A DNA stretch of 64,000 bases from Thermoplasmata archaeon (GTDB lineage Archaea; Thermoplasmatota; E2; JACPAO01; JAHFTW01), in NCBI GenBank assembly GCA_034667725.1, contig JAXDQS010000006.1:1-64000 (forward strand), read 5' to 3'. Of this stretch, positions 9,418-44,797 are shown piece after piece. The translations under genes were made by a program, and so were the position numbers. How positions within the stretch are numbered: the stretch's first letter is position 1; every line of letters begins with the position of its first letter. Below the pieces are notes generated by a model. That model worked only from the letters and a program-made list of their open reading frames with translations, had not been told where the DNA came from and ran no database searches.

Positions 9418-9471
9418 CTGGACACAGATTCCACAGACCTTTCTCAGAGGTTCTGTGGAATCTGTGTCCAG
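9418..9471. repeat. Perfect 20-bp inverted repeat of repeat module A (REP-like hairpin)
   Basis: CTGGACACAGATTCCACAGA, 14-nt loop, TCTGTGGAATCTGTGTCCAG. Confidence 0.93.
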
Positions 9472-9528
9472 GGGGAAGCCGAGGGCGAGGTGGACGGCTT
9501 CTTGAACGCCCCGCCCCTTTTCGCCCGC

Positions 9529-11085
9529 GTGCAGACCCAGGAGGCCGCCGCCAGCCGCGAGGCCCGCATCGCCGCCGACATCGCCCGCCTCCGCCTGGGC
9601 GGCCTCCAGAAGTACAAGGACAAGCTGGCCGACGACGGCAAGCTGTTCGTGCGCGACCGCTTGGAGCTGTACTTCCCCGGCGGCCTGGAGTTCGAGGACG
9701 GCCTGTTCGCGAACAACCGCAAGGCCGACGAGGGCCTGGCCGCGGACGGCATGGTGACGGGGGTCGGCAAGATGGAGGGCCGGCCGCTGTTCGTCATCGC
9801 CAACGACTACACCGTCAAGGCCGGCAGCATGGCGGAGCGCGGCGTCGAGAAGTTCATCCGCGTCCAGGAGCGCGCGCTACGCGCCAAGAAGCCGATCCTC
9901 TACCTCATCGACTCGTCCGGCGCGCGCATCACCGACCAGTCCGGCTTCTTCGCCAACAACCGCGGCATTGGGAAGTACTTCTACAACCACAGCATCCTGT
10001 CGGGCAAGATTCCCCAGGTGTCGGTGCTGTACGGGCCGTGCGTCGCAGGTGCTGCCTACACGCCGGTGTTCTGCGACTTCAGCATCATGGTGCGCGGCAT
10101 GAGCGCCCTGTGCATCGCGAGCCCCCGCATGGTCGAGATGGTGACGGGCGAGAAGATCGGGATGCAGGAGCTGGGCGGCGCCGACTTCCACATGGAGGTC
10201 TCCGGCTCGTGCCACATGGTGGTGGACTCGGAGGAGGAGGCCGCGCTGGCGGTCTGGCGCCTCATGAGCTACCTGCCCGACAACTGCGACCAACGCCCGC
10301 CCCGCTACGAGACGGCCGAGCCCGCCCGCAGCCCCTCGGAACTGGCCCGCATCGTCCCCGAGGACCCGAACAAGGCGTTCGACATGCACGACGCCATCGA
10401 CACCCTGGTGGACGCGGGCTCCTGGTTCGAAATCAAGGCCGGCCACGCCCAAGAACTCCTGACCGGCTTCGCCCGCGTCGGCGGCATGGTGGTCGGCCTC
10501 GTCGCCAACAACACCGCCGTGCGCGCCGGCGCCATCTTCCCCCAAAGCGCCGACAAGGCCGCCGAGTTCATCCTCGCCTGCGACGCCTACAACGTCCCCC
10601 TGCTGTACCTCAGCGACACGCCCGGCTTCATGGTCGGCAGCGAGGTCGAGGCGCAAGGCATCCTCAAGCGCGGCAAGAAGTTCATCTACGCCACCTCGAC
10701 GGCCACCGTGCCGAAGCTGTGCATCGTGGTCCGCAAGGCCTACGGCGCCGGCATCTACGCCATGTGCGGCCCCGCCTTCGAGCCCGACGCCACCCTCGCC
10801 CTCCCCGGCGCGGAGATCGCCGTCATGGGCGCCGAGGCCGCCGTGAACGCCGTGTTCGCCAACCACATCGCCAAGATCGCCGACCCGAAGGAGCGCGCCG
10901 CCTACGTCGAGCAGAAGCGCACCGAGTACAAGGCCGACATCGACATCCACGTCGTCGCGGACGACCTGATCGTGGACCACATCGTGCCGCCAGCAGAGCT
11001 GCGCCGCGAGGTCATCGCCCGGCTGGAAGCGTACCAGGACAAGCACCTGGCGCTGCCGAAGCGGGGGCATGGCACCGTGATCTAG
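9529..11085 (+). CDS. Acyl-CoA carboxylase carboxyltransferase (beta) subunit, MCC/PCC type
   Basis: GKLFVRDRL, ANDYTVKAGS, DSSGARI, GPCVAGAAY, DTPGFMVG, RKAYGAGIYAM. GTG start inferred. Confidence 0.93.
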   Translation: MQTQEAAASREARIAADIARLRLGGLQKYKDKLADDGKLFVRDRLELYFPGGLEFEDGLFANNRKADEGLAADGMVTGVGKMEGRPLFVIANDYTVKAGSMAERGVEKFIRVQERALRAKKPILYLIDSSGARITDQSGFFANNRGIGKYFYNHSILSGKIPQVSVLYGPCVAGAAYTPVFCDFSIMVRGMSALCIASPRMVEMVTGEKIGMQELGGADFHMEVSGSCHMVVDSEEEAALAVWRLMSYLPDNCDQRPPRYETAEPARSPSELARIVPEDPNKAFDMHDAIDTLVDAGSWFEIKAGHAQELLTGFARVGGMVVGLVANNTAVRAGAIFPQSADKAAEFILACDAYNVPLLYLSDTPGFMVGSEVEAQGILKRGKKFIYATSTATVPKLCIVVRKAYGAGIYAMCGPAFEPDATLALPGAEIAVMGAEAAVNAVFANHIAKIADPKERAAYVEQKRTEYKADIDIHVVADDLIVDHIVPPAELRREVIARLEAYQDKHLALPKRGHGTVI

Positions 11086-11089
11086 CGCG

Positions 11090-11242
11090 AATGGACGCCG
11101 TCCATCCGGATGCACGGGGGCTTCGCCCCCTGCGCCCCCCACGGCTAGGAGGCCGCGCCCTCGGCCCATGCGCTCCTGGCGTCGCGCAGGCGGGCGCCCT
11201 CGGTCCTGCGCGCTTGCGCGCACGGCGGCCTCCGGCTCGGCG
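11090..11242. repeat. Structured intergenic element with several hairpins between convergent genes
   Basis: Stems ATGGAC/GTCCAT, GGGGGC-TTC-GCCCCC, GGAGGCCGC/GCGGCCTCC, GCGCAGG/CCTGCGC. Confidence 0.55.
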
Positions 11243-13840
11243 CTACGCCTTCGGCTGCTTGCCCTTCTTCGGCCCGGAGGCGTTCTTGCCCTCGATGTCG
11301 GCGGCCGCGATGTCGCGCTTGGGCTGCGTCGTCCAGACGGACTCGTGCTCCATCTTGACCTCGAACTCGGTCTGGCCGGGGTTGGAGAGGTCGGCGGCGT
11401 CGCGCTCCTCGCGGTCGAGCTGCGTCTCGTAGGCCTCGGCGTCGGCGGCGCTGCGCATCTTGGGCAGCTCCTTGCGCTCCCAGGCCAGCTTGGCCTCGTA
11501 GGTGTCGACGTCGGCGGCGCTGCGCATCTTGGGCAGCTCGCGGCCTTCCTTGGCGATGCGGGCCTCGTAGGACTCGACGTCCGCCGCGGACTGGAGCTTG
11601 GGCATCTCGCGGTGGTCGCGGGACAGCTTGGCCTCGATGGCTTCGCCGTCGGTGACGTTGCGGAGCTTCGGCAGCGGCTTGGCCTCGGCGTCGCGCTTGG
11701 CGTGGATGGACTCGCCGTCGGTGACGTTGCGCAGCCTGGGCAGCGGCTTGGCCTCGGCGTCGCGGCGGGCCTCGATGGGCTCGGTGTCCGTGACGTTGCG
11801 CAGCCTGGGCAGCGGCTTGGCCTCGGCGTCGCGGCGGGCCTCGAGGGCGCCGTCGGTGACGTTGCGCAGCTTGGGCAGCGGCTTGGCTTCGGCGTCCTGG
11901 CGGGTCTCCAGGGCGTCGTCGGTGACGTTGCGCAGCTTGGGCAGCGGCTTGGCCTCGGCGTCCTGGCGCGTCTCCAGGGAGTCGTCGGAGACGTTGCGGA
12001 GCTTCGGCATCACCTTGTGCTCGGAGTCGCGGCGGGCCTCGACGGCCTCGTCGGTGACGTTGCGAAGCTTCGGGAGCGGCTTGGCCTCGGCGTCGCGGCG
12101 GGCCTCGACGGCCCCGTCGGTGACGTTGCGGAGCTTCGGCATCACCTTGTGCTCCGAGTCGCGGCGGGCCTCCAGGGCGCCGTCGGTGACGTTGCGCAGC
12201 TTCGGGAGGGGCTTGGCCTCGGCGTCCTGGCGCGCCTCGACGGTCTCGTCGGCGGCGTTGCGCATCTTGGGCAGCGCCTTCGGCTCGGCGTCGCGGCGGG
12301 CCTCGAAGGCCTGCTCGCCGAAGCGGATGCGGGGGGCGGCGCGGGACTCCTTGTCCTGGCGCGCCTCGACCTCGGTCTCCTGGATCTTGAGCTTGGGGGC
12401 GGAGCGGGTCTCGCGGTCGACGCGGGCCTCGAAGCTGGCCTCGCCGGGCGCGCGCAGCTTGGGCGCCTCGCGGGTCTCGCGGTCCTGGCGGGCCTCGAAC
12501 TTGGCCTCGCCGGGGGCGCGGAACTTGGGAGTGTCGCGGTGCTCGCGGTCGACGCGGGCCTCGATGGCGGAGTCGGCGGCGTTGCGCATCTTCGGGGCGT
12601 CGCGGGCCTCACGGTCGAGGCGGGTCTCGAAGTGCGCGCCGGCCAGGGCGGACAGGTTGGGGGCAGCGGGGCGCGACTCGGCGTCGCGCCTGACGGCGAC
12701 GGCCTCGTCGCCGGCGCCCTTCATCTTCGGGAGGGCCTTGGGTTCGGCGTCGCGCCGGGTCTCGACGGCCTCGTCGCCGGGGCTGCGCATGCGGGGCAGC
12801 TCGCGGCGCTCCTCGCGGCGCACCTGGGCGTGGCCCTTGGGGAGCGGGTTGGCGGCCGGCTTTGAGGCCTTGGTGGGCAGCTCCAGCGGGGTGGCGGCGC
12901 CCAAGACCTCGGCGACCTTGTCCATGGAGGACTTGGCCAGCTCGGAGCTCTGGGCGTCCGACTTGACGGCGAACTCGTCGGCGTCGGCCGGCGAGACGAT
13001 GCGGAACTCCTCCTTCTCGTCCTTCGACAGCTTGACCTCGAAGTCGTCGGTGTCGGCGGGGGAGCGGATCTTGCCTTGGCTGGCCTCGGCGGCGTCCTTG
13101 CGGACCTCGAAGCCGCCGGCGGCGGTCTTGCCGGTCCCGGTGGGGACGTGGTGGGGCTTGGGGGCGCGGATGTCCACCGTGCCGGCGTCGCCCGCGAGGG
13201 GCGCCGTGGGCTTGGCGCCGGGCTTCTGGACCTCGAAGTCGCCGGCGTCGAAGCCGGCGGCCTGGGCGGCGGTCTTGGCCTTCGGGGCCTTGACCTCGAA
13301 GGCGGCCTCGTCGACGTCCTCGTGCTGCACGCGGGCGGCACGGGGCTTCTGGACCTCGACGTCGCCCAGGCTCGCCAGCTTCGCGGCGGCGTCCTTGGCG
13401 GGCGTCGAGGAGTCCGGCACGTCCGGGCGGTCCACCGCGGCCGCCGCCATCGCCGCAAGGCGCTTGGCGGACAGGGCCGCGGGGGCTGCCGGCTTCGGGG
13501 CCGGGGCGGGCTCGGGCTCCGGCGCGGCGGGGAGGGTCACGGACTTGCCGTGCTTCTTCTCCTCGGCCTCGACGGCGGCGTCGATCTCGGCAAACAGCTC
13601 CTCGTCGGAGATGGTCTTGACGTTGGGCTTGGGGCCAGGGGCGGCGCCGCCGCCGGCGGCAAGGTTCACTTTCCCCGTCTTGGGGTCGTACTCCTTGCTG
13701 CCGGCGGAGCCGGACTTGGCCTCGTTGAAGGAGCGGACGGAAACGGCCGCGTCCTCTTCATCTGTGACCTTGGCGCTGAAGGCCGCCATGCGGGCCGCCC
13801 TCTGCTTTGCATCCTCGGAGGAGGGGGTGGGTTTGCTCAT
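11243..13840 (-). CDS. 865-aa charged, probably disordered cytoplasmic tandem-repeat protein
   Basis: No signal peptide or TM; ~22 repeats of 21-23 aa like ALEARRDAEAKPLPKLRNVTDG; ~8 upstream FEVKxP-like motifs. Confidence 0.85.
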   Translation of the reverse strand: MSKPTPSSEDAKQRAARMAAFSAKVTDEEDAAVSVRSFNEAKSGSAGSKEYDPKTGKVNLAAGGGAAPGPKPNVKTISDEELFAEIDAAVEAEEKKHGKSVTLPAAPEPEPAPAPKPAAPAALSAKRLAAMAAAAVDRPDVPDSSTPAKDAAAKLASLGDVEVQKPRAARVQHEDVDEAAFEVKAPKAKTAAQAAGFDAGDFEVQKPGAKPTAPLAGDAGTVDIRAPKPHHVPTGTGKTAAGGFEVRKDAAEASQGKIRSPADTDDFEVKLSKDEKEEFRIVSPADADEFAVKSDAQSSELAKSSMDKVAEVLGAATPLELPTKASKPAANPLPKGHAQVRREERRELPRMRSPGDEAVETRRDAEPKALPKMKGAGDEAVAVRRDAESRPAAPNLSALAGAHFETRLDREARDAPKMRNAADSAIEARVDREHRDTPKFRAPGEAKFEARQDRETREAPKLRAPGEASFEARVDRETRSAPKLKIQETEVEARQDKESRAAPRIRFGEQAFEARRDAEPKALPKMRNAADETVEARQDAEAKPLPKLRNVTDGALEARRDSEHKVMPKLRNVTDGAVEARRDAEAKPLPKLRNVTDEAVEARRDSEHKVMPKLRNVSDDSLETRQDAEAKPLPKLRNVTDDALETRQDAEAKPLPKLRNVTDGALEARRDAEAKPLPRLRNVTDTEPIEARRDAEAKPLPRLRNVTDGESIHAKRDAEAKPLPKLRNVTDGEAIEAKLSRDHREMPKLQSAADVESYEARIAKEGRELPKMRSAADVDTYEAKLAWERKELPKMRSAADAEAYETQLDREERDAADLSNPGQTEFEVKMEHESVWTTQPKRDIAAADIEGKNASGPKKGKQPKA
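11370..12830 (-). repeat. Coding tandem repeat, 63-69 nt unit, ~22 copies
   Basis: Recurrent + strand string GTCGGTGACGTTGCGCAGCTTGGGCAGCGGCTTGGCCTCGGCGTC; central copies are most conserved. Confidence 0.9.
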
Positions 13841-13866
13841 GACGATCGCCGCCTAGCCGGCGGCTC

Positions 13867-14940: not shown

Positions 14941-14979
14941 GGAGCGATCCTCGGTGAGGCGGGGGAAGGTAAGACCAAC

Positions 14980-15040
14980 CAGGGGGGCTGGGGGTGAGTG
15001 GGAAGGAAGGAGCGGGGAAGGGGAGAGGGAAGGAGGTGGA
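14980..15040 (-). terminator. Pyrimidine-rich tract downstream of the actin gene (possible terminator or attenuator)
   Basis: Minus strand reads CCTCCTTCCTCTCCCTTCCCCGCTCCTTCCTTCCC just after the stop. Confidence 0.4.
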
Positions 15041-15072
15041 GGCCCGCACGCGGCGGGGTTCAGCCTTGCGGC

Positions 15073-16120: not shown

Positions 16121-16410
16121 CGGAATGGCCAGGTCGCGTCCAGAAGGACGTTTCCTGTCATCCGTGGTTGGAAGCGCCCAAGGATGGGACCTATTTACGG
16201 TTATGCCCCAGTGCTCGTTCCTCCTGGAAACGGGCCGTTTTGGCCCACACGGGAATCATGCACGGCGAGGATCGATTGCCGGCGGCCGTTTTTCGGCCTC
16301 GGCCGGCACCTCGGTTTCCCATGCAAAACCCTATGGCGACGCGCCGGCTCGCAAGGCATCGGGAGGGATGGGGGACGCGGATTGTCAAGAAGACCCTGAA
16401 GGGCGACCTG

Positions 16411-17400
16411 ATGGGCCGCACCGGGTTCAAGGAGGTCAAGCAGCCGCGCCGCAAGGCCGGCGACGAACCCGAGAAGGCCGCCGCGCCGACGCCTTCCTCT
16501 CCTGTTGCGGCGGCCCCCCCCAAGGCCACCGACGCCACCCGCCGCATCCTCGAGGCGCTGCGGGACGACGACGTCGTGGTGATCACCGAGCCGCTGCACC
16601 CGCGCCACGGCCGCGCCATCGTGCTCGACCGCGACCACCGTGAAATCTCCAGTGTCGCCCAGCAGGCGCCCAGCGGCACCGACGCGAACCTGGCCGGCGC
16701 CCCTTCGATTCCGCCGGTTCCGCCCATCCCGCCGCACGCGGCCCCGCCCAAGCCGACCGCGCCGCTTTCTTCTCCTCGCAAGAAAACAATCCAGGCAACC
16801 GCGCTCCAACAGGAGGCGGCGGCCCCCACCGCGCGCACGCTGCAGCAGGCCGAGGCCGCCCCCGCTCCCGGCGCCGCAAGGCGCGCCGCGGAGCTGGACG
16901 GCGGCGCCATCGCGCTGGCGCGCAGCGTCATCGCCGAGGCCGTGTACCGCGAGTTCGGCGCCGGCGGCTCCAAGGTCCAGCAGCCCAAAGGCATGAACTT
17001 CCTGCTGCACCCGCGCCGCCCCGCCGGGGTGGTGCGCACCCAGCACAACCTGATGCTGCCCCTTCCGTCGGGCATGGCCACCAGCCACCACGCCGACGTG
17101 GTCGTCGAGCTGGAGAACGGCGCCGTGCTGATGCTCGACGTCGTGCCCAGCAGCGTGTCGGTGACGGAGCTGAAGGCGCGCGCGTTCGACGCGCTGCAGC
17201 TGCGCCGCCTCGACCTGGCGTTCTCCATCCTGGTGTTCGTGCGCGCCCCAGGAGGGATGCCGCAGGAGCAGGCCGAGGCCCTCGGGCACGGCTACGACTT
17301 CCACTTCGGCATCGCGGAGGATCAGGTCCACTCGGAGCAGTCGTTCGCGGCGCTGCGGGCGCGAATCGGGTCCTGGCTCGACGCGAACGGGGCGAAGTAG
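16411..17400 (+). CDS. Pro/Ala-rich N-terminus plus a degenerate GxxExxY / PD-(D/E)XK-like C-terminal domain
   Basis: VYREFGAG..VRTQ..HHADVVVE..VLMLDV..FSILVF aligns by eye with the GxxExxY pattern VHRELGPG..VERQ..YRxDLLVE..VIVELK..GLLINF. Start uncertain (in-frame ATGs at 16321, 16333, 16411). Confidence 0.6.
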   Translation: MGRTGFKEVKQPRRKAGDEPEKAAAPTPSSPVAAAPPKATDATRRILEALRDDDVVVITEPLHPRHGRAIVLDRDHREISSVAQQAPSGTDANLAGAPSIPPVPPIPPHAAPPKPTAPLSSPRKKTIQATALQQEAAAPTARTLQQAEAAPAPGAARRAAELDGGAIALARSVIAEAVYREFGAGGSKVQQPKGMNFLLHPRRPAGVVRTQHNLMLPLPSGMATSHHADVVVELENGAVLMLDVVPSSVSVTELKARAFDALQLRRLDLAFSILVFVRAPGGMPQEQAEALGHGYDFHFGIAEDQVHSEQSFAALRARIGSWLDANGAK

Positions 17401-17427
17401 CTCCCGTCTGATTGGACAGCGCGCCTC

Positions 17428-17800
17428 CTGGACACAGATTCCACAGACGGTCTGTGGGGATCTTCCGAATCCGTGCGAATCAGTGCTCGTCGCGCGCCGC
17501 CGACTGGACACAGATTCCACAGATGGTCTCTGGACACACAGACTCCACAGACGGTCTGTGGGGATCTTCCCAATCTGAGAGCATCAGTGCTCGTCGCGGG
17601 CCGCCGACTGACACAGATTCCACAGAGCCCCTCTGGACGCAACACTCCACAGAGCGCCTTCTGGACGACGAACCCCATGGACGGTCTGTGGGAATCTTCC
17701 GAATCTGTGCGAATCAGTGCTCGTCGCGCGTTCCCTGGACACAGACTCCACAAGATGCTCTGTGGGAATCTTCCCAATCTGCGGGAACCAGTGCCCGTCG
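17428..17800 (+). repeat. Mosaic intergenic repeat array (A-B-A-A-B-A-A-A-B-A-B)
   Basis: A = CTGGACACAGATTCCACAGA (7 copies, some degenerate); B = TCTGTGGGAATCTTCCGAATCTGTGCGAATCAGTGCTCGTCGCG (4 copies). Confidence 0.92.
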
Positions 17801-17868
17801 ACGGACCCGTCGAAGCGAGGTTCCCAGCCCGAAAAACAAGGAGAAAGGAAGAGGAGGCGACGCTTTGC

Positions 17869-18465: not shown

Positions 18466-18568
18466 CTGGGGGTCACCGGCGGAGGCGCCGATTCGATGGT
18501 CCTAGATAAGTTGCCTGGAGGCCGTGGCGTAGGCAATTTTGATGGCGGCCACCCGCCTCGCCTGCGGC

Positions 18569-20191
18569 ATGAAGCCCACTTGGGCGGTCGCCGTCGCCCT
18601 TGCCCTGCTGCCCTTGCTGGCCGGCTGCATGCAGTCCGCCCAGGAGCCGCCAGCGCCGTTGCCCGAGGCCCGCCTGCGCATGGTGGGCGGTGTGCGCAAC
18701 CAGCAGGTGACGGTGGACCCGCCGACCCGCCAGGCCAACGAGCTGTCGGTCGCGGTCGACCCGACGGACGCGCGCAACCTGCTGGCCACCGGGAAGGACT
18801 ACACCCAGCCCTACGCCGGCGAGTGCGTGTGGGACGGCATCTACGTCAGCCACGACGGTGGCGCCTCCTGGAGCAACGGGAACCTGATGGGCTCGCCGTG
18901 GAAGGCCCGCGCCGACCTGGCCGCGGGCGGCGAGCCGGAGACGCACGCGCAGCTGTCGCGGTTCTACTGCGCCACCGATCCGGTGGTCGCGTGGGGTCCC
19001 GACGGCACCGCCTACTGGAGCGTCATGCCGTACCAGTGCGACCCGGCCTCCGGCTCCAAGACCGGCGCCGAGCTGCTGCCGGGCGTCGGGCTGCCTCCGG
19101 GCGGCGCCAACGACTGGCTATGGACCTGCAGCAGCATGTACGTCCTTGCGTCCGAAGACAAGGGCGACACCTGGACGACGGTGTCCGAGGTCGCCTTCGG
19201 CCCCCGCCTCCAGCACGACAAGCAGTGGCTCGCCGTGTCGCCGCCGCTGCCCGGCGTCCCAGGCGGCCGCGTCCTTCTGTGCTGGGACCAGGACGACTGG
19301 GCCTCCGGCGCGCTGGCGGACGACTACGCCGCCCTGACGCAGGACTCGGACGCGCCGCCCTACCCGGACGACCTCGTGGTGCCGGACCAGCCCGTGCCCA
19401 CCGCCACCGTCTGCGCCACCTCGGAGGACCGCGCCGCCACCTGGAGCCCGCCCGCGGTCGCGCACACCAGCCTCGCGCTGCCCTGGGTCGAGTTCGGCCC
19501 CGACGGCACCGCGTTCATGCTCGGCGTCAACGGCACCCACGTCCTTGCCAGCCACAGCCGCGACGGCCTCGCCTGGCACGCCCCCGTCCCCGTCGGCGGC
19601 TACACCGACCCCGCCAGCACCATCATGAACGGCTTCACCGCCCTCAACGGGAGCGTGTTCCGCACCTTCGCGCTGCCCAGCCTGGCCATCGACCGCAGCG
19701 ACGGCCCGTCCCGCGGCACCCTGTACGCCACCTGGATGGACGCAGCCTCGGGCCTGGGACGCACCATGCTCGCCGTGAGCCGCGACGGCGGCGCCAACTG
19801 GACCTCGCAATGGATTCACGGCCTGCTGCTCGACGACGGCAACGCCCGCGGCGACCAGTTCATGCCCGCGGTCTCCGTGGGCCCGGACGGCACGGTGGAC
19901 CTCTCCTGGAACGACCGCCGCATGGACCCCACCAACCACCTGTTCGACCTGTACTACGCCTACTCCGTCGACGGCGGCCGGACGTTCAGCAAGGCCCTCC
20001 GGGTGAGCGACGTCGCAAGCGACGAGCAGTACAGCCACCACCAGAACGGCGCCATCTTCCTCGGCGACTACCGCGACCTCGACTCGGCGGCGGGCACGGC
20101 GCATCCGGTGTGGGTGGACACCCGCAACGGCAAGGCGGACGTCTACACGGCGACCATCGAGCGGCCGTCGGCGAACCAGTTGGCTCCCTGA
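18569..20191 (+). CDS. BNR/Asp-box (sialidase-like beta-propeller) lipoprotein
   Basis: Lipobox LAGC; Asp-boxes SHDGGASW, SEDKGDTW, SRDGGANW, SVDGGRTF; FLGDY. Confidence 0.88.
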   Translation: MKPTWAVAVALALLPLLAGCMQSAQEPPAPLPEARLRMVGGVRNQQVTVDPPTRQANELSVAVDPTDARNLLATGKDYTQPYAGECVWDGIYVSHDGGASWSNGNLMGSPWKARADLAAGGEPETHAQLSRFYCATDPVVAWGPDGTAYWSVMPYQCDPASGSKTGAELLPGVGLPPGGANDWLWTCSSMYVLASEDKGDTWTTVSEVAFGPRLQHDKQWLAVSPPLPGVPGGRVLLCWDQDDWASGALADDYAALTQDSDAPPYPDDLVVPDQPVPTATVCATSEDRAATWSPPAVAHTSLALPWVEFGPDGTAFMLGVNGTHVLASHSRDGLAWHAPVPVGGYTDPASTIMNGFTALNGSVFRTFALPSLAIDRSDGPSRGTLYATWMDAASGLGRTMLAVSRDGGANWTSQWIHGLLLDDGNARGDQFMPAVSVGPDGTVDLSWNDRRMDPTNHLFDLYYAYSVDGGRTFSKALRVSDVASDEQYSHHQNGAIFLGDYRDLDSAAGTAHPVWVDTRNGKADVYTATIERPSANQLAP

Positions 20192-20212
20192 GGACTCTGC
20201 GTCTTCGGGCTC

Positions 20213-20272
20213 CTCGGTGGGTTCGGTGGACAAGTCGGGCGAAGCGCCGACCCATCCACCGAGTCCACCGAG
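20213..20272. repeat. Imperfect inverted repeat between convergent genes
   Basis: CTCGGTGGGTTCGGTGGA ... TCCACCGAGTCCACCGAG with inner GTCGG/CCGAC stem. Confidence 0.75.
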
Positions 20273-20282
20273 ACCCCCGCGG

Positions 20283-21984: not shown

Positions 21985-21995
21985 GCGGAACGCGC

Positions 21996-25721: not shown

Positions 25722-25965
25722 CTGGACACAGATTCCACAGGGCGCCCCTGGACACAGATTCCACAGATATCTGTGAGAATCTTCTGAATCTGGGGAAATC
25801 AGTGCTCGTCGCGCGCGCCGCCGACTAGACACAGATTCCATAGAGGGTCTGTGGGAATCTTCCGAATCTGAGGGAATCGGTGCTCGTCGCGGGGCCGCCG
25901 ACTGGACACAGATTCCACAGACCCTGACTTTGGACCTGGCGGGGCCTAGGGCGGAATTCCACAGA
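25722..25965 (+). repeat. Mosaic intergenic repeat array (A-A-B-A-B-A-C)
   Basis: Modules A and B plus module C (CCCTGACTTTGGACCTGGCGGGGCCTAG...AATTCCACAGA). Confidence 0.92.
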
Positions 25966-36198: not shown

Positions 36199-36268
36199 GG
36201 GCCGTGCGACGGGGTGGGCGACTTCAGGCCTTGCCTTCGCTCGGGCCGGCCAAGGTTCCCGCAGAGGG

Positions 36269-36538
36269 TCTGTGGAATTTGTTGCTGGCCCGCCAGGCCC
36301 AAAGCCAGGGTTCTGTGGAATCTGTGTCCACTCGGCGGCCCCGCGACCAGCACTGATTTCCCCAGATTCAGAAGATTCCCACAGAACGTCTGTGGAATCT
36401 GTGTCCAGTCGGCGGCGCGCGACGAGCACTGATTTGCACAGATTCGGAAGATTCCCTCAGAGATCTGTGGAATCTGTGTCAGGGGGCGCTCTGTGGAATC
36501 TGTGTCCAGGTGGGGCGCTCTGTGGAATCTGTGTCCAG
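36269..36538 (-). repeat. Mosaic intergenic repeat array, reverse orientation (A-A-A-B-A-B-A-C)
   Basis: Five TCTGTGGAATCTGTGTC copies, two reverse B modules and one C module. Confidence 0.92.
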
Positions 36539-36551: not shown

Positions 36552-36908
36552 CTAAGGCTCCTCGGTCCGCTCGACCCCGAAGCTGACCTTCAGGTTGACC
36601 TTGTACTCCAGGATTTCGCCGTCGCGGCACTTGACGCTCATGCCCTCCACCGACGCGCCCGTGATGCCCCGGGTGGTCTCGCGGGCGTCCTCCAGGCAGT
36701 TCTGGATGGCGCGCTCGAAGGAGTCGGTGCTGCTGCACACCAGCTCGACGATCTTGGCGGTGCGGTGGGCGTGGACCTGCCCCTCGCCGCTGCCCCAGGA
36801 GGAGTCCGTCATGCGGTCCTGCTCGGCGGTGGTGGCGCCGGCGCGGCGGCCGGTGGAGCGCTCGCTGGAGCGGCTGTTGTTGCTGTTGCTGCGGGAGTTG
36901 CGGGCCAT
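36552..36908 (-). CDS. Dodecin-family protein with disordered N-terminal extension
   Basis: KIVELVCSSTDSFERAIQN...DGEILEYKVNLKVSF. Confidence 0.85.
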   Translation of the reverse strand: MARNSRSNSNNSRSSERSTGRRAGATTAEQDRMTDSSWGSGEGQVHAHRTAKIVELVCSSTDSFERAIQNCLEDARETTRGITGASVEGMSVKCRDGEILEYKVNLKVSFGVERTEEP

Positions 36909-37023: not shown

Positions 37024-37293
37024 GTGACGCTGCTGCGGCCGTGCGCCACCTCCGCGGGCTTCACCGCGACCCCGGAGCCGCTGCGTCGCGTCGACATGCG
37101 CCGGCTGAAGGCCGCGCTGGCGGGCGCCGGCTACACGGTGGTGGTGGACGCCAGCATCATCCTCATCGTCCGCAAGGGCGTCGAGTCGAGCTGCTACGAC
37201 AACGGCAAGGTGCTCCTCAAGACCACCGACCGTGAGGCGGCGGAGCGCGCCTACGCGGAGCTTGCGCCGCTGGTGCAGGCCGCGTCGCGCTAG
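37024..37293 (+). CDS. Small hypothetical protein
   Basis: Host-like codons; LRPCATS..YDNGKVLLKT; GTG start inferred. Confidence 0.65.
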   Translation: MTLLRPCATSAGFTATPEPLRRVDMRRLKAALAGAGYTVVVDASIILIVRKGVESSCYDNGKVLLKTTDREAAERAYAELAPLVQAASR

Positions 37294-38051
37294 AGCGTGG
37301 CGGCGCCGCGCCAGCCGGGCGCCGGGTCGCGCTCGCCGTAGAGGTAGGTCACGGTGGCCTCGCCGGAGGAGCCGTCGGCCTCGACGACGGCGTGGGTGCG
37401 CTGGAGGCGGGCGTCGCGCACGACGGCATCGAGCGGCACGGTGCGGTCGCCCTCGGTGGCGTCGTAGGTGGCGTGGATGGTGCCGTCGCGCTGCCATTGG
37501 GCGTCCTTGAGCGCCATGCGGGGGAAGCTGCGGTCGCCGGAGACGGCGGTCAGCTCGGCGGCCAGGCGGGGGTTGTCGGCCAGGACGCGCTGGACGGCGG
37601 CGCGGAACGCCTCGGCGTCGGCGGGCGCGGGGCGGCAGGCCGCGACGGGGTTGGCGGTCTCGGCGTCGGCGTCCTTCAGCCCGAGGCCTTCGCCGTCGGC
37701 CACGCGCACGACGACGCGCTCGGGCGTGCAGGCGATGGCGATGCGGGCGGCCTGCGCGGCGGCGGTGAGGTTGCCGCCTTCGCCCTCGAGCCGGGTGTAG
37801 CGCAGCGTCGTCGTCCAGGCGTCGCCTTGGTGGTAGACGGTCTCGCCCTCGACGCCGATGCGCACCGCGGGGTCGTCGAGCCGCAGCACGACGAGCTGGG
37901 CGCGGGCGGCGCCGCCGGGGCCGAGCGCCTGCTCGGTGGCGGCCGGGGCGGCCGAGGCCTGCTCGCGGGCGAACGCGGGCGACGGCGACAGGCAGCCGGC
38001 CAGGAGGAGGGCGGGCACGAGGGCGAGGGCGGCGAGGCGCACGCTCCCCAT
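37290..38051 (-). CDS. Lipoprotein of unknown function
   Basis: MGSVRLAALALVPALLLAGC lipobox. Confidence 0.78.
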   Translation of the reverse strand: MGSVRLAALALVPALLLAGCLSPSPAFAREQASAAPAATEQALGPGGAARAQLVVLRLDDPAVRIGVEGETVYHQGDAWTTTLRYTRLEGEGGNLTAAAQAARIAIACTPERVVVRVADGEGLGLKDADAETANPVAACRPAPADAEAFRAAVQRVLADNPRLAAELTAVSGDRSFPRMALKDAQWQRDGTIHATYDATEGDRTVPLDAVVRDARLQRTHAVVEADGSSGEATVTYLYGERDPAPGWRGAATL

Positions 38052-38083
38052 GCCGCGCCGGCTCCCTTCAGGCTTGCGCTCCC

Positions 38084-41000
38084 TCAGCCGCCGAGGCTCA
38101 CCGGCACGGGCGGCACCACGACGGGCGGCACGGTCAGGGGCAGCGGCGGCAGCGGCACGGGCAGCGGGGCCGGCGTGTCCATGTGGAACGTCGCGGTCTC
38201 CGACGGGTCCGAGTCCAGCCCGGCCGTGACGGCGACGACCTGGTAGTAGTTCGTCGCGTCGGAGGGGTTGGGCAGCGTGTCCTCGCAGGAGGTGACCGTG
38301 CCCGGCACCGTGGCGATGACGGTGCCCGTGTGGAACGGGTCCGGGCTGGTGCCGCGGTACACGCGGTATTGGTCGATGGCGCAGTCGCCCGCGGGGGTCG
38401 CGGCGGCCCACGCGACGTGGACCCCGCCGGAGGCGCCCAGCGTGGCCGTGACGCCGCCCGGCGCGCTTGGCGCCTGGGGGGCGGCCGTGACGCCGACGAC
38501 GCCCGAGGTGCCGCTGCCGCCGCCTCCGTTGTGGGAGGTGACGCGGTAGCTGTAGGCGCCGCAGGCCACCAGGCCGGGGTGCGTGAGCGAGGTCCCCGTC
38601 GTGGAGCCCAGCGGATACCATGCGCCCTCGCTGGCGAGGTTGTACTCGACGTCGTAGCGCTCAGGGCAGGCGGAGCCGGCGGCCCAGGAGAGCGTGGCCT
38701 GGTTGAGGCCGGCGTCGTAGGAGGCCGTGAGGCCCACGGGGGCCGAGTCGTCCGGCACCGTGACCTGGAGGTGGTCCGTGGTGAAGGCGGTCATGCTGTA
38801 GGTGTAGGGCGGAACGGCGGGGTTGTTGCCCACGCCGACCTTGAGGTAGCGCGTCTGGCAGGGAACCAGCGACCAGCCTGGGACCTTGATGCTGTAGCCG
38901 CTCACGACGCCATCGGTGTAGGTCTCGGTGTAGTCCAGGATGGAGAAGCCCCAGCCGGCCGAGTAGGGGCCCGCGGGGTTCGTGCTGGAGTAGACTGTGG
39001 GGTGGTAGTCGGCGCAGTTGGCGGAGTTCTCCTGCGCGAACGACAGCGTGATGCGCAGGTCGCTGCCCTCCCGGGCGACCGTGCCCGAGAACAGGCCGAC
39101 CGCCTCCGGGATCCAGTGGTAGGCCTTGAGCAGGCGCGGCGTGCCTGGCAGCCAGTAGTAGGGAATGTCGTCGCCGGGGCTCATGGTGTCGTAGGTCCAC
39201 GCCTCGTCCGGCTTGTAGGTCAGCGTCGAGTACTCGTACTGGTGGCAGGCGAGCAGGCCCTCGTGCAGCGCCCACGAGCCGGTCCCGTGCCCGACCTTGC
39301 CGGCGGGGATGAAGTGGTCGTAGTAGATGCCGAGGAACGTCCACGGCGCATGGCTGTCCGGGTCGGCCGTGAGGTCGTGGTAGCCGATGACGTGCTTGTA
39401 GTTGCAGCCGTCGTTGGCCCAGTCCAGCGTCCAGCTCGGCGAGGGGGCCGGGTGGCGGCCGGACAACGGCAGCGCCCTGATGGGCGCGTAGGGCGCCGTA
39501 TGCGCGTTGTACCATTCCATGTCGCACGCCGAGGCGGACGAGTAGAAGTCGCACGGGTGCTGGGGCGAGTCGGCGTAGTTGTCGGTCGAGCCGGCGAGGT
39601 CCACCGGGTTGCTGCCGCGCCACTCGTGCATCGTGACGCCAAAGGTCTGGAAGATGCCGTCGCGGCAGATGGGCTCGTAGACGTACAGCGTGAGCGAGTT
39701 GCTCGGCCAGTCCGCGATCTTCTGCGGGAAGGTGCCGTCGACGCGGTGCAGCTCCAGCCGCTCGCCGCAGTTGGGCATGGCGCTGATGCGCAGCAGGTAG
39801 CGGTGCGAGGCGGCGTCGTGGCTGTCCACCGAGAGCGTGACGTCGGTGGGCGGGCCGGTGTACTCGCCCGCCGAGCTCGGGGCGCGCCAGGACATCAGCA
39901 GGGGCGTGCCGGCGCCGACGCTGTTGTGGGGCGTGACGCGGATGTCCACCAGCTCGCAGTCGCCGACGGGCTCGAGGTCCACTCCGGCCGTGAGGGAGTG
40001 CTCGCCGACCGGGACCGTGTAGGACTTGTGGTAAGCGCCGATGGTGGTCTCCACGACGTAGCGGGTGGGCCGGCAGTCGTTCTGGTCGATGTTCCAGGCC
40101 AGGCGGGCGCTGTGGGTGCTGGCGCGGTAGTCGGGCTGGTAGCCGGCGTCCACCCACGGGGCGTTGGGCGGCTTGGTGGGGGTCGTGGTGTCGGTGAAGG
40201 GGAAGGCGCGGGCGTTCTTGTTGTCGCCGCGCTCCGTCCAGAACGCCTCGGCGACGTTGCGGCCGTAGAGCGCCTCGTTGACGGCGTCCTTGGTCTCGAC
40301 TTGCGCCTGGTACCGGGTGCACCATTGCAACGGCAGGGCGCGCGTGGTGCCGGTGCCCAGGGCCGCGTCCGAGTTGGTGCGCTGGCCGTAGCGGGTCGCC
40401 TCGACCTTGTGCAGGTTGTTCCAGGTCGGGACGGTGGGGGCGAGGTAGTTGCAGACCGGGTCGAGCCAGTCCCAAGACAGCGTCTTGCTGGCTTCGTCGA
40501 TGGTGGCGGTCATGCCGCCGCCCGGGGAGTATGCCACGTCCCAGCGGCCGCATTCGCTGTCGCCGTAGGGGTCGCAGGCGTCGCCGGCGCCGTTGGCGTT
40601 GGCGTCGGCGGCCGTCCCATAGAGCTCGACGCAGGGGTCGGAGCCGTCGGCGAGGCCGTCGCAGTCGTAGTCGCCGGCGGTGGGGGTGTCCATGGCGACG
40701 TCCAAGGTACGGATGGCCATGTCCTCGAACGTGCTCTCCGTGAGGCGTTCGCCGAAGGTCACGAGCACCCGATAGGGGGACGCATCCATCGGGACGGGCA
40801 TGGTGCGGGTGAAGGGCAACGTGAAGTCGGCGCGCTTGAACTCCTCCCGCCGAGGGGACGCATCGACGAGGTGGCGATTGACGTGGCGGGTGTCCTTGGC
40901 GAAGCTGTCGTAGGAGACGATGACGTCCTTCCAGGCGGGGTCCCAGGCGACGGCCGAGATGGTGAGGGACACCCTGTTGCAGGAGCTGTCGAGGCTCCAG

Positions 41001-41110
41001 GTGACGTCGCCGCTGCCGTCGTTGTGGTTGGCGGCCTGGGTCGAGGCGGCGATGGCCGCAAGGGCCAGAAGGGCAAGGAAGGGAAGCAGGCGAGCTCGCA
41101 GGGGGACCAC
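38084..41110 (-). CDS. Large secreted protein with FN3-like domains and a TSP3-like Ca-binding segment
   Basis: Signal peptide; DYDCDGLADGSDPC..DANANGAGDACD; FN3 patterns (LSW..Y.V..YSYRVT); Pro-rich C-terminus. Confidence 0.8.
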   Translation of the reverse strand: MVPLRARLLPFLALLALAAIAASTQAANHNDGSGDVTWSLDSSCNRVSLTISAVAWDPAWKDVIVSYDSFAKDTRHVNRHLVDASPRREEFKRADFTLPFTRTMPVPMDASPYRVLVTFGERLTESTFEDMAIRTLDVAMDTPTAGDYDCDGLADGSDPCVELYGTAADANANGAGDACDPYGDSECGRWDVAYSPGGGMTATIDEASKTLSWDWLDPVCNYLAPTVPTWNNLHKVEATRYGQRTNSDAALGTGTTRALPLQWCTRYQAQVETKDAVNEALYGRNVAEAFWTERGDNKNARAFPFTDTTTPTKPPNAPWVDAGYQPDYRASTHSARLAWNIDQNDCRPTRYVVETTIGAYHKSYTVPVGEHSLTAGVDLEPVGDCELVDIRVTPHNSVGAGTPLLMSWRAPSSAGEYTGPPTDVTLSVDSHDAASHRYLLRISAMPNCGERLELHRVDGTFPQKIADWPSNSLTLYVYEPICRDGIFQTFGVTMHEWRGSNPVDLAGSTDNYADSPQHPCDFYSSASACDMEWYNAHTAPYAPIRALPLSGRHPAPSPSWTLDWANDGCNYKHVIGYHDLTADPDSHAPWTFLGIYYDHFIPAGKVGHGTGSWALHEGLLACHQYEYSTLTYKPDEAWTYDTMSPGDDIPYYWLPGTPRLLKAYHWIPEAVGLFSGTVAREGSDLRITLSFAQENSANCADYHPTVYSSTNPAGPYSAGWGFSILDYTETYTDGVVSGYSIKVPGWSLVPCQTRYLKVGVGNNPAVPPYTYSMTAFTTDHLQVTVPDDSAPVGLTASYDAGLNQATLSWAAGSACPERYDVEYNLASEGAWYPLGSTTGTSLTHPGLVACGAYSYRVTSHNGGGGSGTSGVVGVTAAPQAPSAPGGVTATLGASGGVHVAWAAATPAGDCAIDQYRVYRGTSPDPFHTGTVIATVPGTVTSCEDTLPNPSDATNYYQVVAVTAGLDSDPSETATFHMDTPAPLPVPLPPLPLTVPPVVVPPVPVSLGG

Positions 41111-41166
41111 CAAGGCGCAGCTACCTGGGCGCCGCTTTGAAGGTTGCCAGGGCGGAGGCTTCGCGC

Positions 41167-42945
41167 CTAAGCGTGCAGCCAGACGCCGCGGGTGGGCGAC
41201 TCGACGCGGACGAAGCCGAAGCGCTCGAACTGCACGACGCGGCCCGGCTCGGCGACGGCGGCGGCCTCGACCATGCCGTGGATCTCCAAGAGCGGCGGGA
41301 CCTCGATCTCCTTCTGGTCCTTGCCGGCGGGCGCCTCGCCGCCTTCGTCGTCGAGCGCCGCGGCCTCGTCGTCGGCCAGGAACGCCGGCTTGAGGACCGT
41401 GAACGGCTTGGCCTCCGACCTGGGGAGCCACTGCACGATGCCCATGGTGCGGTCCATGGCGTCGCCGGCGAACGACGCGCGGGCGCCTTGGACGGCGATG
41501 TTGCCGAGGTCCTTCAGGCGCAGCTGCGGGGCCAGGTCGCCTTTGGGGATGTAGATGTCGGGCTCGGCGGCAAGGACGCGATGGCCGGCGTCCGGCGTGC
41601 TAGGCAGCAGCAGCGGCTTGGCGACACGGCCGGCGATGCCGTCGACGTGCAGCGGGGCGGGGTCGGGGACGAAGAAGTAGCGGCGGGCCTCGGGCTCGAT
41701 GGCCTTGGCGTCCTCGGCGTCCAGGTTGCTGAGGCTGATCGCGATGTCCTTCTCGGTGAGGCCCAGGGACACCCAGAAGGCGCGGATGGCTTGGGGAGCG
41801 TAGCCGCGGCGGCGCAGGGCGGCGAGGCAGGGGAGGCGGGGGTCGTCCCAGCCGGAGAACTTGCCGGCCTCGATGGCGCGGCGCATCATGCTGGTGCTGA
41901 ACTTGCCGAACTCGTGGACCGACACGCGGCCCCAGTAGAGCGTCTCCGGGTAGGTCCAGCCCATGTGGGCGTAGAGGAACGCCTGCTTGCGGGTGGAGTC
42001 CATGAGGTCCTTGCCGCGGATGACGTGCGTGACGCCTTGCAGGTGGTCCTCGATGGCGCTCTGGAAGTCCAGCAGGGGCCAGGCGTGGTGGCGCGGAATC
42101 TCGCCCTTGCGCTCGCGGGGATGGATGGCGTCCTTCGCCACGACGCGGAACGCGGTCCAGTCGCGCAGCCCCGGGTGCGGGTGGGTGATGTCGGTCTTGA
42201 CCCGGAGCACGGCGGCGCCCTTCGGGGTGGTGCCGTCGCACATGGCGTCGAAGCCGGCGAGGTTGTCCGCCACGGACTGGCCGCGGTGCGGGCACGCCGT
42301 CTTGGCCTCCTTGAGGGCACGGAACGCGTCGCCCTCGCAGCCGCAGACGTAGCCGCCGCCGGCCCGGATCAGGTCGCGCGCGGCCTCCTGGTAGATCGGG
42401 ATGCGGTCGCTTGCCCGCAGTTCCCGCGTCGGCGCGCGGCCGGTGAGCCACTGGAAGTCGTCGCGGATCATCTGGTAGCCGTCCCAGCCGCGCTTGTCGT
42501 CCATCAAGGGGGGCTTGACCTGGGGGTCGGTGTCGTCGAAGCGCAGCAGCAGCTCGGAGCCGGGATAGGTGCGCCAGTATTCGGCCAGGATCGACACGCC
42601 GCGCGAGTGCCCCAGCGACAGCGGCCCGTTCGGGTTGGGCGCGAACCGCATCACGACCTTGCCCTGGACGTTGGGCAGCTCCTTCAGCCCGGCCCGCTTC
42701 TCCTTCTTCTGGACCTGCAGCAGCTCGGGCGCCTCGGCCTCCAGCGCGGCCTTCTGGGCCTCCGGCGCCATGGCGTTGACCGCGGCGGCGGCGGCCTCCA
42801 AGGCGGCGGCGACGGCGGCGGCCTGGGCCCGCAGCTCGGGCTGGCTCGCCATGATGCGGCCGACCAGCTGCTTGCCGTTGGCCTTGCCGCCGTGCTGGAC
42901 GGCGTTCTGGAGGCACATCCGGCGCGCCAAGGTCTCCAGGTCCAC
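41167..42945 (-). CDS. gltX: Glutamate-tRNA ligase, archaeal type
   Basis: VVMRFAPNPNGPLSLGH, RFDDTDP, THVIRGKD, GWDDPRL, QFERFGF. GTG start inferred. Confidence 0.96.
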   Translation of the reverse strand: MDLETLARRMCLQNAVQHGGKANGKQLVGRIMASQPELRAQAAAVAAALEAAAAAVNAMAPEAQKAALEAEAPELLQVQKKEKRAGLKELPNVQGKVVMRFAPNPNGPLSLGHSRGVSILAEYWRTYPGSELLLRFDDTDPQVKPPLMDDKRGWDGYQMIRDDFQWLTGRAPTRELRASDRIPIYQEAARDLIRAGGGYVCGCEGDAFRALKEAKTACPHRGQSVADNLAGFDAMCDGTTPKGAAVLRVKTDITHPHPGLRDWTAFRVVAKDAIHPRERKGEIPRHHAWPLLDFQSAIEDHLQGVTHVIRGKDLMDSTRKQAFLYAHMGWTYPETLYWGRVSVHEFGKFSTSMMRRAIEAGKFSGWDDPRLPCLAALRRRGYAPQAIRAFWVSLGLTEKDIAISLSNLDAEDAKAIEPEARRYFFVPDPAPLHVDGIAGRVAKPLLLPSTPDAGHRVLAAEPDIYIPKGDLAPQLRLKDLGNIAVQGARASFAGDAMDRTMGIVQWLPRSEAKPFTVLKPAFLADDEAAALDDEGGEAPAGKDQKEIEVPPLLEIHGMVEAAAVAEPGRVVQFERFGFVRVESPTRGVWLHA

Positions 42946-43037
42946 GGCCGCGGCGAGGCAGGTCCTTGATAAAGCAGGTTCGTCCTTCAAGACCCTTTGC
43001 CTCCGAGGTTTATCTCTGGAACCAAGAGACTCCGGTC

Positions 43038-43400
43038 ATGGACAAGCCTCATCCGGTCGCCCTCGTGGTGGAGGACGCCAAGACGGACGGCGAGGTGCTT
43101 TCCCGCCTGCTGGCGGCCTTGGGGTGCCGAACCGACTGGGTGCGCGACGGCCGGGCCGGCGTGCTGGCCGCGTGCAGCGGCTCCTACGACTTCGTCTTCA
43201 TGGACATCGAGATGCCGCGCATGAACGGCCTGGCCGCGACCCGGGCCATCCAGGAGCAGCTCGGCCCCAACAGCCCCTTCATCGTCGCCGTCAGCGGCCA
43301 CCGCGGCAACTCCGACCGCCAGGCCTGCGCCGACGCCGGCATGGACTACTTCATCGAGAAGCCGGTGCGGAAGCGGAACCTGGAGACCATCCTGGCCTGA
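43038..43400 (+). CDS. Single-domain response regulator (CheY-like)
   Basis: LVVED, FMDIEMPRMNG, FIEKP. Confidence 0.92.
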   Translation: MDKPHPVALVVEDAKTDGEVLSRLLAALGCRTDWVRDGRAGVLAACSGSYDFVFMDIEMPRMNGLAATRAIQEQLGPNSPFIVAVSGHRGNSDRQACADAGMDYFIEKPVRKRNLETILA

Positions 43401-43447
43401 GCCTCTGACCTCGCCCTCTTAACCGACCCGGCCTTCGGCGGCCTGCC

Positions 43448-44446
43448 ATGGATGCCATCCTCCTCGCGGGCGGCTACGGCACCCGCCTCCGCCCCCTCAC
43501 CTACACGCGCCCGAAGCCCCTCCTGCCCGTCGCGGGCCGCCCCATGGTGGAATGGGTCATCGACCGGCTGCCGCCGGAGACCCGCCGCGTCGTCGTGGCC
43601 GTCAACTGGAAGGCCCAGGCCCTCGGCGCCTACTTCGCCGCCCGCGAGCGCAAGCGCGGCGAGCACCTGGAGTTCGTCGTGGTGCGCGAGGAGGAGCCGC
43701 TCGGCACCGGGGGTGCCGCCAAGAACTGCGAGCGCCACCTGGAGTCCGACCGGTTCCTGGTGCTCAACGCCGACATCGTCTCCTCCATGGACCTGGCCGC
43801 GATGGCGCGGGTCCACAAGGCCCACGGCGGCGTCGGCACCATCAGCCTGAAGGAGGTCGCCCCCGCCGAGGTGGTCAACTTCGGCGTCGTCGAGCCCGGC
43901 CCGCCCCACCCGTCCGGCGCCATCCCGATCAAGTCGTTCGTCGAGAAGCCGAAAGACCCCAGCCTGGCCCCGAGCCGCCTTATCAACGCCGGCGCCTACC
44001 TGCTGGAGCGCCGCGTCCTCGACCTCGTCCCCGCCGGCCGCCTGGTGTCGATGGAGAAGGAGATTTTCCCGCAACTGATTCCCCAGGGCTTCTACGGCCA
44101 CCCGTTCACGGGCCACTGGATCGACGTCGGCGATCCCCAGCGCCTGCTGCAGGCGGCCCACCAGCTCGACGCGCGCTACGCCGTCGGCCCCGGCAGCCGC
44201 GTCGACCCGAGCGCCAAGTTCGAGGGCTCGGTCGCCGGGCGCGACTGCACCGTCGGCGCCGGCGCCACGGTGGAGCGCTGCGTGCTGGGCGACGCCGTCA
44301 CGGTGGCCGCGGGCGTGCGGCTGGCGGACTGCGTCGTCGGCGACGGCGAGCGGGTCGCGGCGGACGCGACCGGGCAGCGAATCTGGTCGAAGCCGGTGCC
44401 GGCGGGGTACCCGCAGAAGCAGGTCGGGAACTCGCTGGCCGTCTGA
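43448..44446 (+). CDS. NDP-sugar pyrophosphorylase (mannose-1-phosphate guanylyltransferase-like)
   Basis: LAGGYGTRLRPLT..PKPL, EPLGTGGA, FVEKP, WIDVG, hexapeptide-repeat C-terminus. Confidence 0.93.
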   Translation: MDAILLAGGYGTRLRPLTYTRPKPLLPVAGRPMVEWVIDRLPPETRRVVVAVNWKAQALGAYFAARERKRGEHLEFVVVREEEPLGTGGAAKNCERHLESDRFLVLNADIVSSMDLAAMARVHKAHGGVGTISLKEVAPAEVVNFGVVEPGPPHPSGAIPIKSFVEKPKDPSLAPSRLINAGAYLLERRVLDLVPAGRLVSMEKEIFPQLIPQGFYGHPFTGHWIDVGDPQRLLQAAHQLDARYAVGPGSRVDPSAKFEGSVAGRDCTVGAGATVERCVLGDAVTVAAGVRLADCVVGDGERVAADATGQRIWSKPVPAGYPQKQVGNSLAV

Positions 44447-44462
44447 GCCGCCACGCGCACGG

Positions 44463-44797
44463 CGGACACAGGCTCACAGAGCGCCCCACCTGGACACAGA
44501 TTCCACAGAGGCTCTGTGGGAATCTTCCGAATCTGTGCGAATCAGTGCTCGTTGCGTGCCCGACTGGACACAGATTCCACAGAGCGCCCAACCTGGACAC
44601 AGATTCCACGGATCTCTGAGGGAATCTTCCGAATCTGAGGAAATCAGTGCTCGTCGCGCGCCCGACGCACACAGATTCCACAGACCCAGACTTTGGTTCT
44701 GGCGGGGCCTAGACAAAAATTCCACAGAGTTCTGAGGAAATCTTCCGAATCCGTGCAAATCAGTGCTCGTCGCGCGCCGACTGGACACAGGTTCCAC
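44463..44797 (+). repeat. Mosaic intergenic repeat array (A-A-B-A-A-B-A-C-B-A)
   Basis: Modules A, B and C between convergent genes. Confidence 0.92.

Follow-up and report, generated by a model that had tools for sequence, protein, structure and literature searches.

Mosaic intergenic repeats of a soil archaeon as probable gene-less members of a repeat-plus-nuclease (GxxExxY) system

The first 64,000 nucleotides of contig JAXDQS010000006.1, from the Thermoplasmata archaeon assembly GCA_034667725.1 (hereafter the window), carry intergenic repeats built from three short modules, A, B and C. We propose that these loci are probably gene-less members of a repeat-plus-nuclease system whose nuclease is a GxxExxY protein, and which works like the REPIN/RAYT and NTS/Ssn systems compared below. 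A full cassette would consist of two to three forward units, a gene of about 115 residues for a GxxExxY protein (PF13366, PD-(D/E)XK fold) and two to three reversed units overlapping its stop codon. Module A would be the left arm, B the right arm with extra units, and C the sub-terminal stretch between left arm and gene; with the modules read as cassette parts, the A-B, A-C-B and A-loop-A' arrangements found in this genome become cassettes without the gene. The nuclease, we infer, acts in trans: it recognises the phased units and nicks or cuts there; gene-less copies, often whole arrays, would then be copied into nearby gaps at gene 3' ends, and the nuclease gene itself would stay single-copy and vertically inherited.

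The window belongs to a metagenome-assembled genome from soil (G000; 2.32 Mb, 26 contigs, 90% complete, 71% G+C), which we compared with 12 relatives of its genus (13 genomes in all, 65-94% complete) and with 19 genomes from 10 other genera of the family. Gene positions are codon-usage gene calls made in the present analysis (2,129 genes in G000). The host is an archaeon, as a first-pass annotation of the window had concluded: its archaeal signal recognition particle (SRP) RNA scores 138.5 bits, above the Rfam cut-off, and its LonB is of archaeal type. A match to a PGF-CTERM-type sorting signal in a neighbouring protein was weak and below cut-off.

Module A (CTGGACACAGATTCCACAGA, 20 nt, at most 3 mismatches) occurs 21 times in the window and not once in 100 shuffles. 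Module B (44 nt, same tolerance) occurs ten times against none expected, plus a degenerate copy at 17759-17802, and module C three times (25922-25965; 36269-36311, reversed; and 44685-44728). All these modules are confined to five loci, and all five are intergenic. The five repeat loci described in the first-pass annotation are thus real, and so is their placement between genes. A sixth related element in the window, at 20205, is built from another unit family. The six elements are:

9418-9471, no strand: lone A-loop-A' palindrome of two perfect 20-nt A arms and a 14-nt loop, 8 nt past the stop of gene 7571-9409 and 18 nt ahead of gene 9490-11085.
17428-17802, plus strand: largest array of the window (A-B, A, degenerate A copies, B, A, B, A, B), in a convergent gap, 27 nt past the stop of gene 16333-17400.
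20205-20285, no strand: palindrome of CACCGA units ("module D"), in the convergent gap of genes 18542-20191 and 20283-21143.
25722-25965, plus strand: array of order A A B A B A C, flanked on both sides by a minus-strand gene, its C end 26 nt from the stop of gene 25992-27455.
36262-36538, minus strand: array A A A B A B A C (array 36269 below), with the module order of array 25722, 13 nt past the stop of dodecin gene 36552-36908.
44463-44800, plus strand: array of a degenerate A followed by A B A A B A C B A, with convergent genes 43448-44446 and 44819-45340 on either side.

The annotation had all five loci starting directly after a stop codon, which holds for four of them; at array 25722 the stop codon lies on the C side. 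Folded as DNA, palindrome 9418 is very stable (-26.9 kcal/mol, z -8.4), and the CACCGA palindrome reaches -26.8 kcal/mol (z -4.5).

A single 9-10-nt unit, CACAGATTC, underlies all modules, and its general form is C-R-C-N-G-A-nnn. Two forward units make up A; B corresponds to A reverse-complemented and enlarged by unit duplications, giving about four reversed units; and C shares the terminal ATTCCACAGA with A. Arms start with CTGGAC or CTAGAC. The genome-wide count that the annotation had proposed gave 130 A and 88 B modules at about 54 loci on 8 contigs, in four forms: A-B units of about 77 nt, which include a recurring CGCCGCCGA linker; A-C-B units; lone A-loop-A' palindromes, about a dozen in number; and 29-nt A-linker repeats. 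The hairpin that A and B had been predicted to form did not survive folding, as its stem is only 7 bp long and it folds no better than shuffles (z -1.2). Since conservation in the unit cores of 53 A-B units is at least 90% despite this lack of significant folding, the constraint on these units looks like one on the reading of sequence, rather than of a hairpin. Nor is this the layout of a CRISPR array: the linkers (CGCCGCCGA, GCGCCCC) recur between loci, and the modules alternate and enclose no unique spacers.

The architecture that links these units to a nuclease is seen at most of the GxxExxY genes inspected in the genus. PF13366 is present in all 13 genus genomes, compared to none of the 19 genomes from the other genera, and a single genome of the genus can hold up to eight GxxExxY paralogues, each with its own 9-nt unit. 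Among the 42 genus loci inspected, most have the gene between inverted sets of two to three tandem 9-nt units, and the right arm often overlaps the stop codon. Inverted unit sets of this design accompany 9-10 of 11 bacterial GxxExxY loci, drawn from seven or more phyla. Units are uniform within a cassette and differ between cassettes, for instance CACGAATT, CACCGATG, CACGGAAG, CGCGGATT, CGCAGATG and CACTGAAG. By eye, module C looks like the sequence that separates left arm from gene in the A-type cassettes of three relatives (G007, G006 and G011), and B, read in frame, resembles the C-terminal "ESAESV" arm of the G007 GxxExxY gene. There is about one GxxExxY gene per unit type per genome, and several of these genes keep the same neighbours across species, pointing to vertical inheritance at fixed sites, as for RAYT genes. 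At one bacterial locus (L069, on an uncultured Saccharibacteria contig), the GxxExxY match seems to extend an upstream GTPase-like (translation-factor-like) open frame, which itself contains CGCGGAT-type units; the match may be an in-frame insertion.

The present genome holds a sole GxxExxY gene (contig C5, 135449-135904, minus strand; PF13366 119 bits, TIGR04256 127.8 bits), and no remnant of another was found elsewhere in the 90%-complete assembly. Its PD-(D/E)XK residues are intact: the catalytic D, the E-x-K and the GxxExxY residues are all conserved. The confidently predicted structure (mean predicted local distance difference test score, pLDDT, 96.5) is a minimal nuclease core, closest in fold to Cas4, NucS and Hjc. 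About five A-type hairpins run on from the stop codon of this gene, and each of them holds, between A and A', the last 8 or so nucleotides of the gene followed by its 40-nt 3' tail. As they repeat the end of the gene and its tail between facing arms, we read these hairpins as gene-deleted cassettes.

To relate repeats to genes, we counted tandem unit pairs in each of the 13 genus genomes, where control patterns gave 0-4 hits. CACGAA pairs number 222, 110, 104 and 76 in the four genomes with a CACGAA-bracketed gene, versus 74, 12, 10 and at most 3 in the other nine. CACCGA pairs number 153, 65, 54 and 39 in genomes with a CACCGA-bracketed gene, versus at most 42 in the others. The A core is found 128 times in the present genome, versus at most 37 times in any other, and is present in 11 of the 12 relatives. 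CACGGA units are abundant in six genomes (G001, G003, G002, G010, G011 and G000), and of these only G010, G011 and perhaps G002 showed a matching gene. Copy number hence follows the matching gene for two unit families, CACGAA and CACCGA, as it does for the A core, and only partly for CACGGA. In the present genome the CACGGA family consists of 28 clean palindromes of 3+3 units (CACGGATTN), about 56 nt long, with about 6 nt in the loop and mostly 10-12 nt past stop codons (for example C1:146359-146414 and C10:437530-437585). Hits to two further patterns, CGCCGA and CGCCAA, were discarded as chance matches within coding sequence. Unit families also occur together: several A-B arrays of this genome (C3:403294-403479, C3:387637-388043, C3:455850 and C3:462324) have CACCGA-unit arms on either side, reversed and forward, with a common leader, GCGACGCCTCACCGCCGA, so that one unit family is nested within another.

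Comparison of orthologous gaps, another check that the annotation had called for, showed that arrays have been gained or lost: four of them are missing from collinear gaps in relatives. The gap of array 17428 measures 6 nt in G004, holds an A-type palindrome in G001 and holds other unit families in G012 and G002. The collinear gap of array 25722 is about 300 nt shorter in G007, G006, G002 and G005. Array 36269 and the adjoining dodecin gene are both missing from the gap in G007 and G004, and in G006 the gap of this array has a CGCAGAT palindrome of its own, of the unit type that brackets the G006 GxxExxY gene (L046). Arrays 25722, 36269 and C10:118953 are each absent from collinear gaps in 4-5 relatives, and in G002 the gap of the last holds a palindrome of a further unit family. 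As the same gap can hold different unit families or none, no gap needs one. Two other length differences were noted near these loci: the orthologous gap of the dodecin gene and array 36269 contains another insert, of about 800 nt, in G008, and about 3.5 kb of the window (37270-41170, with genes 37290-38051 and 38084-41110, the latter of 1008 aa without NCBIfam match) is missing from G007, whose flanks lie 376 nt apart.

Several arrays mark places where gene order has changed. The genes flanking array 44463 are neighbours in 0 of the 5 relatives checked, making this locus a synteny breakpoint, and the array beside the GxxExxY gene stands at a synteny or inversion breakpoint versus five relatives. 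Four more, at C10:122398, C10:130993, C3:382188 and C3:387697, are in the same position, so that six of the arrays examined are at breakpoints. A 41-nt A-A' palindrome (C3:378801-378841) sits in a 94-nt gap where G007 (L094, G007:C6:22680-23640), G002 and G004 have about 820 nt that encode a 236-aa membrane protein, which places the palindrome at a gene-loss junction.

The setting of the arrays could also suggest that they serve the host. Convergent gaps, which make up 17% of all gaps, contain 20 of 35 arrays, along with 7 of 10 lone palindromes; of 102 array sides, 74 look towards the 3' end of a gene, and in tandem gaps all 14 arrays are nearer to the stop codon than to the next start. These would be the expected places for host elements kept by selection at gene 3' ends, acting as stabilisers of RNA 3' ends, terminators or arrays for a chromatin protein, with GxxExxY genes as secondary arrivals that home into the loops of palindromes already in place. 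Such an origin would also accommodate the unit families without a matching gene and the position of the GxxExxY gene, exactly at the would-be loop of a palindrome. We nevertheless consider it unlikely. A homing gene should fill many of the tens of palindromes available, and there is about one gene per unit type; the positions of the genes are syntenic across species; and a gap that holds different families, or nothing, depending on the species fits poorly with selection for what it contains. Some arrays are moreover in divergent promoter gaps, and the nuclease gene is the only thing that the archaea and bacteria with this architecture have in common.

A second alternative dispenses with a dedicated enzyme: the repeats would have spread passively, through recombination, slippage and segmental duplication, and their link to the nuclease would be only historical. 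Resemblance between neighbours speaks for it, since the best-matching array is within 100 kb for 14 of 30 arrays (4.9 expected). For example, arrays 25722 and 36269, 10.3 kb apart and in inverted orientation, are 87.9% identical over 239 nt and share one 7-module order. The arrays at synteny or inversion breakpoints and the lack of very recent copies would fit as well. Yet units are no more alike within an array than between arrays (0.847 vs 0.826), and only 6 of 53 units have their nearest neighbour in their own array, contrary to what local, unit-by-unit tandem duplication would give. Together with the inverted pair and the likeness of nearby arrays, this suggests that whole arrays are copied over short distances. 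It is also hard to see how some 54 precisely intergenic loci on 8 contigs could arise without an insertion process, and passive spread leaves unexplained both the tracking of copy number with matching genes and an architecture found across prokaryotes. We thus hold it to be improbable, even more so than a host role.

Inverted arms that carry no gene are what one would expect from miniature inverted-repeat or palindrome-associated transposable elements (MITEs or PATEs) moved by a conventional transposase, either a DDE enzyme or a TnpA/TnpB of the IS200/IS605 type, encoded elsewhere in the genome. Our searches make this very improbable. The Y1 transposase family that includes RAYT and IS200 proteins (PF01797) was detected in 0 of the 13 genus genomes by a search that was positive in 6 control genomes, and no TnpB scored above cut-off. 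Of the flanking genes that the annotation had proposed to list, GxxExxY proved the productive lead; no gene family recurs beside arrays. No single gene stands between facing A arms, setting aside three cases in which two whole inverted arrays, 6.5-10.4 kb apart, surround ordinary genes; one such pair was checked and is not a unit. The 10.8-kb stretch between inverted arrays 25722 and 36269 was considered as a composite transposon and rejected, because in relatives the inner part of the stretch and the left flank are collinear. No target-site duplication was seen by eye, and a BLAST search of the largest array against plasmid and phage records returned no match. The arms, finally, are multi-unit arrays of the kind common to GxxExxY cassettes. 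In viral contigs, the 16-nt A core gave 30 single hits, which by our own estimate is about chance level; a metagenome scan with a flanking protein found nothing.

Other partners and RNA families were sought with negative results. The four-helix-bundle protein of 23S intervening sequences (IVS; PF05635) is found in 0 of the 13 genus genomes. No GIY-YIG protein of the Ssn type was detected, the only PF01541 match being in a 945-aa frame (C3:190555-190773) that does not adjoin any listed array. Rfam models run over positions 9000-45200 gave nothing at gathering score or at E ≤ 1.

Repeats in a metagenome-assembled genome could in principle be an artefact of collapsed or chimeric contigs. We give this hardly any credence: each of the 54 loci is set in a unique flank and has a module order of its own, the copies have diverged, and the same family is found in 11 independently assembled genomes of the genus.

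How does the proposed GxxExxY system compare with those already described? Repetitive extragenic palindromic (REP) sequences and REPINs are imperfect palindromes of 20-40 nt with a GTAG or CGTC tag at one end (PMC3733652), and the associated RAYT gene is single-copy, vertically inherited and flanked by its own repeats (PMC3116915, PMC3337134, PMC3733652). The present repeats are like REP sequences, bacterial interspersed mosaic elements (BIMEs) and REPINs in being short, extragenic and palindromic, in numbering tens to hundreds per genome, placed at the 3' ends of genes and in convergent gaps, in forming mosaic clusters, and in falling into several families per genome that differ between related species; they also share with REP/RAYT a single-copy, vertically inherited gene of nuclease type that is flanked, at most loci of the genus, by its own repeats. 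They differ in the candidate partner, here a PD-(D/E)XK GxxExxY protein, with no Y1/HUH RAYT in the 13 genomes; in the arms, which are 2-5 tandem units of 9-10 nt instead of one GC-rich stem with a GTAG or CGTC tag (no such tag is present at the 54 loci); in A-B units that are not significant hairpins; and in the archaeal host. The REP/BIME-like character first attributed to the window is therefore right as far as mosaic, extragenic, palindromic repeats at gene 3' ends are concerned, and unsupported if REP/BIME proper is meant, as RAYT, tag and a significant A-B hairpin are all missing. The accompanying description, an amplified non-autonomous element and/or protein-binding array, is consistent with our evidence.

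In the NTS/SRM system, the Ssn nuclease (GIY-YIG, cd10448), described in bacteria, cuts near its own repeat (PMC11893778). Here too there is a small single-domain nuclease gene with, at most loci of the genus, a hairpin repeat on both sides, the repeat is dispersed in many copies, and homologues have their own repeat variants; the fold, in contrast, is PD-(D/E)XK and not GIY-YIG, the repeats are made of phased units, and cleavage is only what we infer. With a different enzyme fold and a different repeat design, the loci fall outside the definitions of both REP/REPIN-RAYT and NTS-Ssn. MITEs, Tn7 and Mu offer a parallel for inverted ends with several phased protein-binding sites and for gene-less derivatives, and differ from the present loci, where no joining-chemistry transposase, no visible target-site duplication and no multi-copy autonomous element are found. 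The GxxExxY (PDDEXK_3) family, listed as "Unknown" in a 2012 survey of PD-(D/E)XK proteins, is almost absent from the searchable literature, in which we found no description of its pairing with repeats. What the present work adds is an archaeal genus, mosaic arrays, gene-deleted copies beside the gene, matching-gene counts and differences in the occupancy of orthologous gaps.

Several observations weigh against a GxxExxY repeat-plus-nuclease system. PD-(D/E)XK enzymes are hydrolases of DNA with no known joining activity, which leaves the copying step without a known chemistry. No movement was observed: no pair among the 53 A-B units is 97% or more identical, and inspection by eye of the 54 array loci and of loci of other unit families revealed no target-site duplication. 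The left arm of the GxxExxY gene in the present genome is degenerate, reduced to a single degenerate unit, GGATTCCCAGATGAG. Gene and arms are physically linked, so that their joint divergence is no proof of recognition. The copy-number comparison draws on related genomes, which are non-independent samples, and within it CACGGA copies are most abundant precisely in G001, G003 and G000, where no CACGGA-bracketed gene was seen. The present genome in fact has two orphan families, with no matching gene or remnant in the 90%-complete assembly: CACGGA, at 28 loci, and CACCGA, at about 13, of which one lies in the window. Incomplete genomes, lost genes or a nuclease acting on more than one unit type are possible sources of such orphans.

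Some other features of the window deserve mention. Gene 16333-17400, upstream of the largest array, was considered as a degenerate GxxExxY gene and dismissed: it gave no Pfam, NCBIfam or tblastn signal and is conserved in array-free relatives. The stretch 22614-24059 has a lower GC content (63% vs 71%) and a 481-aa open frame with no Pfam match that was rejected by the codon-usage caller; it may be foreign or non-coding DNA. Tandem repeats of 66 nt (11418-12650; 10 copies, 82%, with flanking variants) lie within minus-strand gene 11243-13840 (865 aa, no NCBIfam match), implying a protein with 22-residue repeats. The hexamer GCCGGT is repeated 16.7 times at 53824-53923, inside minus-strand gene 53728-55953. 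A tRNA-Gly(GCC) was called at 57750-57838 with a length, 89 nt, sufficient for an intron; it overlaps an open frame (57319-57963) that the gene caller let through, probably in error.

GxxExxY/PDDEXK_3 is a very common protein family of prokaryotes, and this genus offers a compact natural test set for it, with paralogues that have their own units, tens to hundreds of gene-less copies and gene-deleted neighbours. If the nuclease does read the units, the family would gain a function, and a third, independently evolved partnership between nuclease and repeat would come to light, one that reaches Archaea. We would go further only tentatively: it is possible that GxxExxY proteins are a third class of domesticated nucleases serving dispersed repeats, after RAYT and Ssn, in Bacteria as well as Archaea; that they read a phased 9-nt code (C-R-C-N-G-A) whose variable bases set specificity; and that in this genus they copy entire mosaic arrays to gene ends close by, thereby seeding gains and losses of genes, inversions and breaks in synteny. 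Were the system to work as proposed, it would account for the variable intergenic gaps and the synteny breakpoints of these soil archaea, and the family may be a source of small sequence-specific nucleases.

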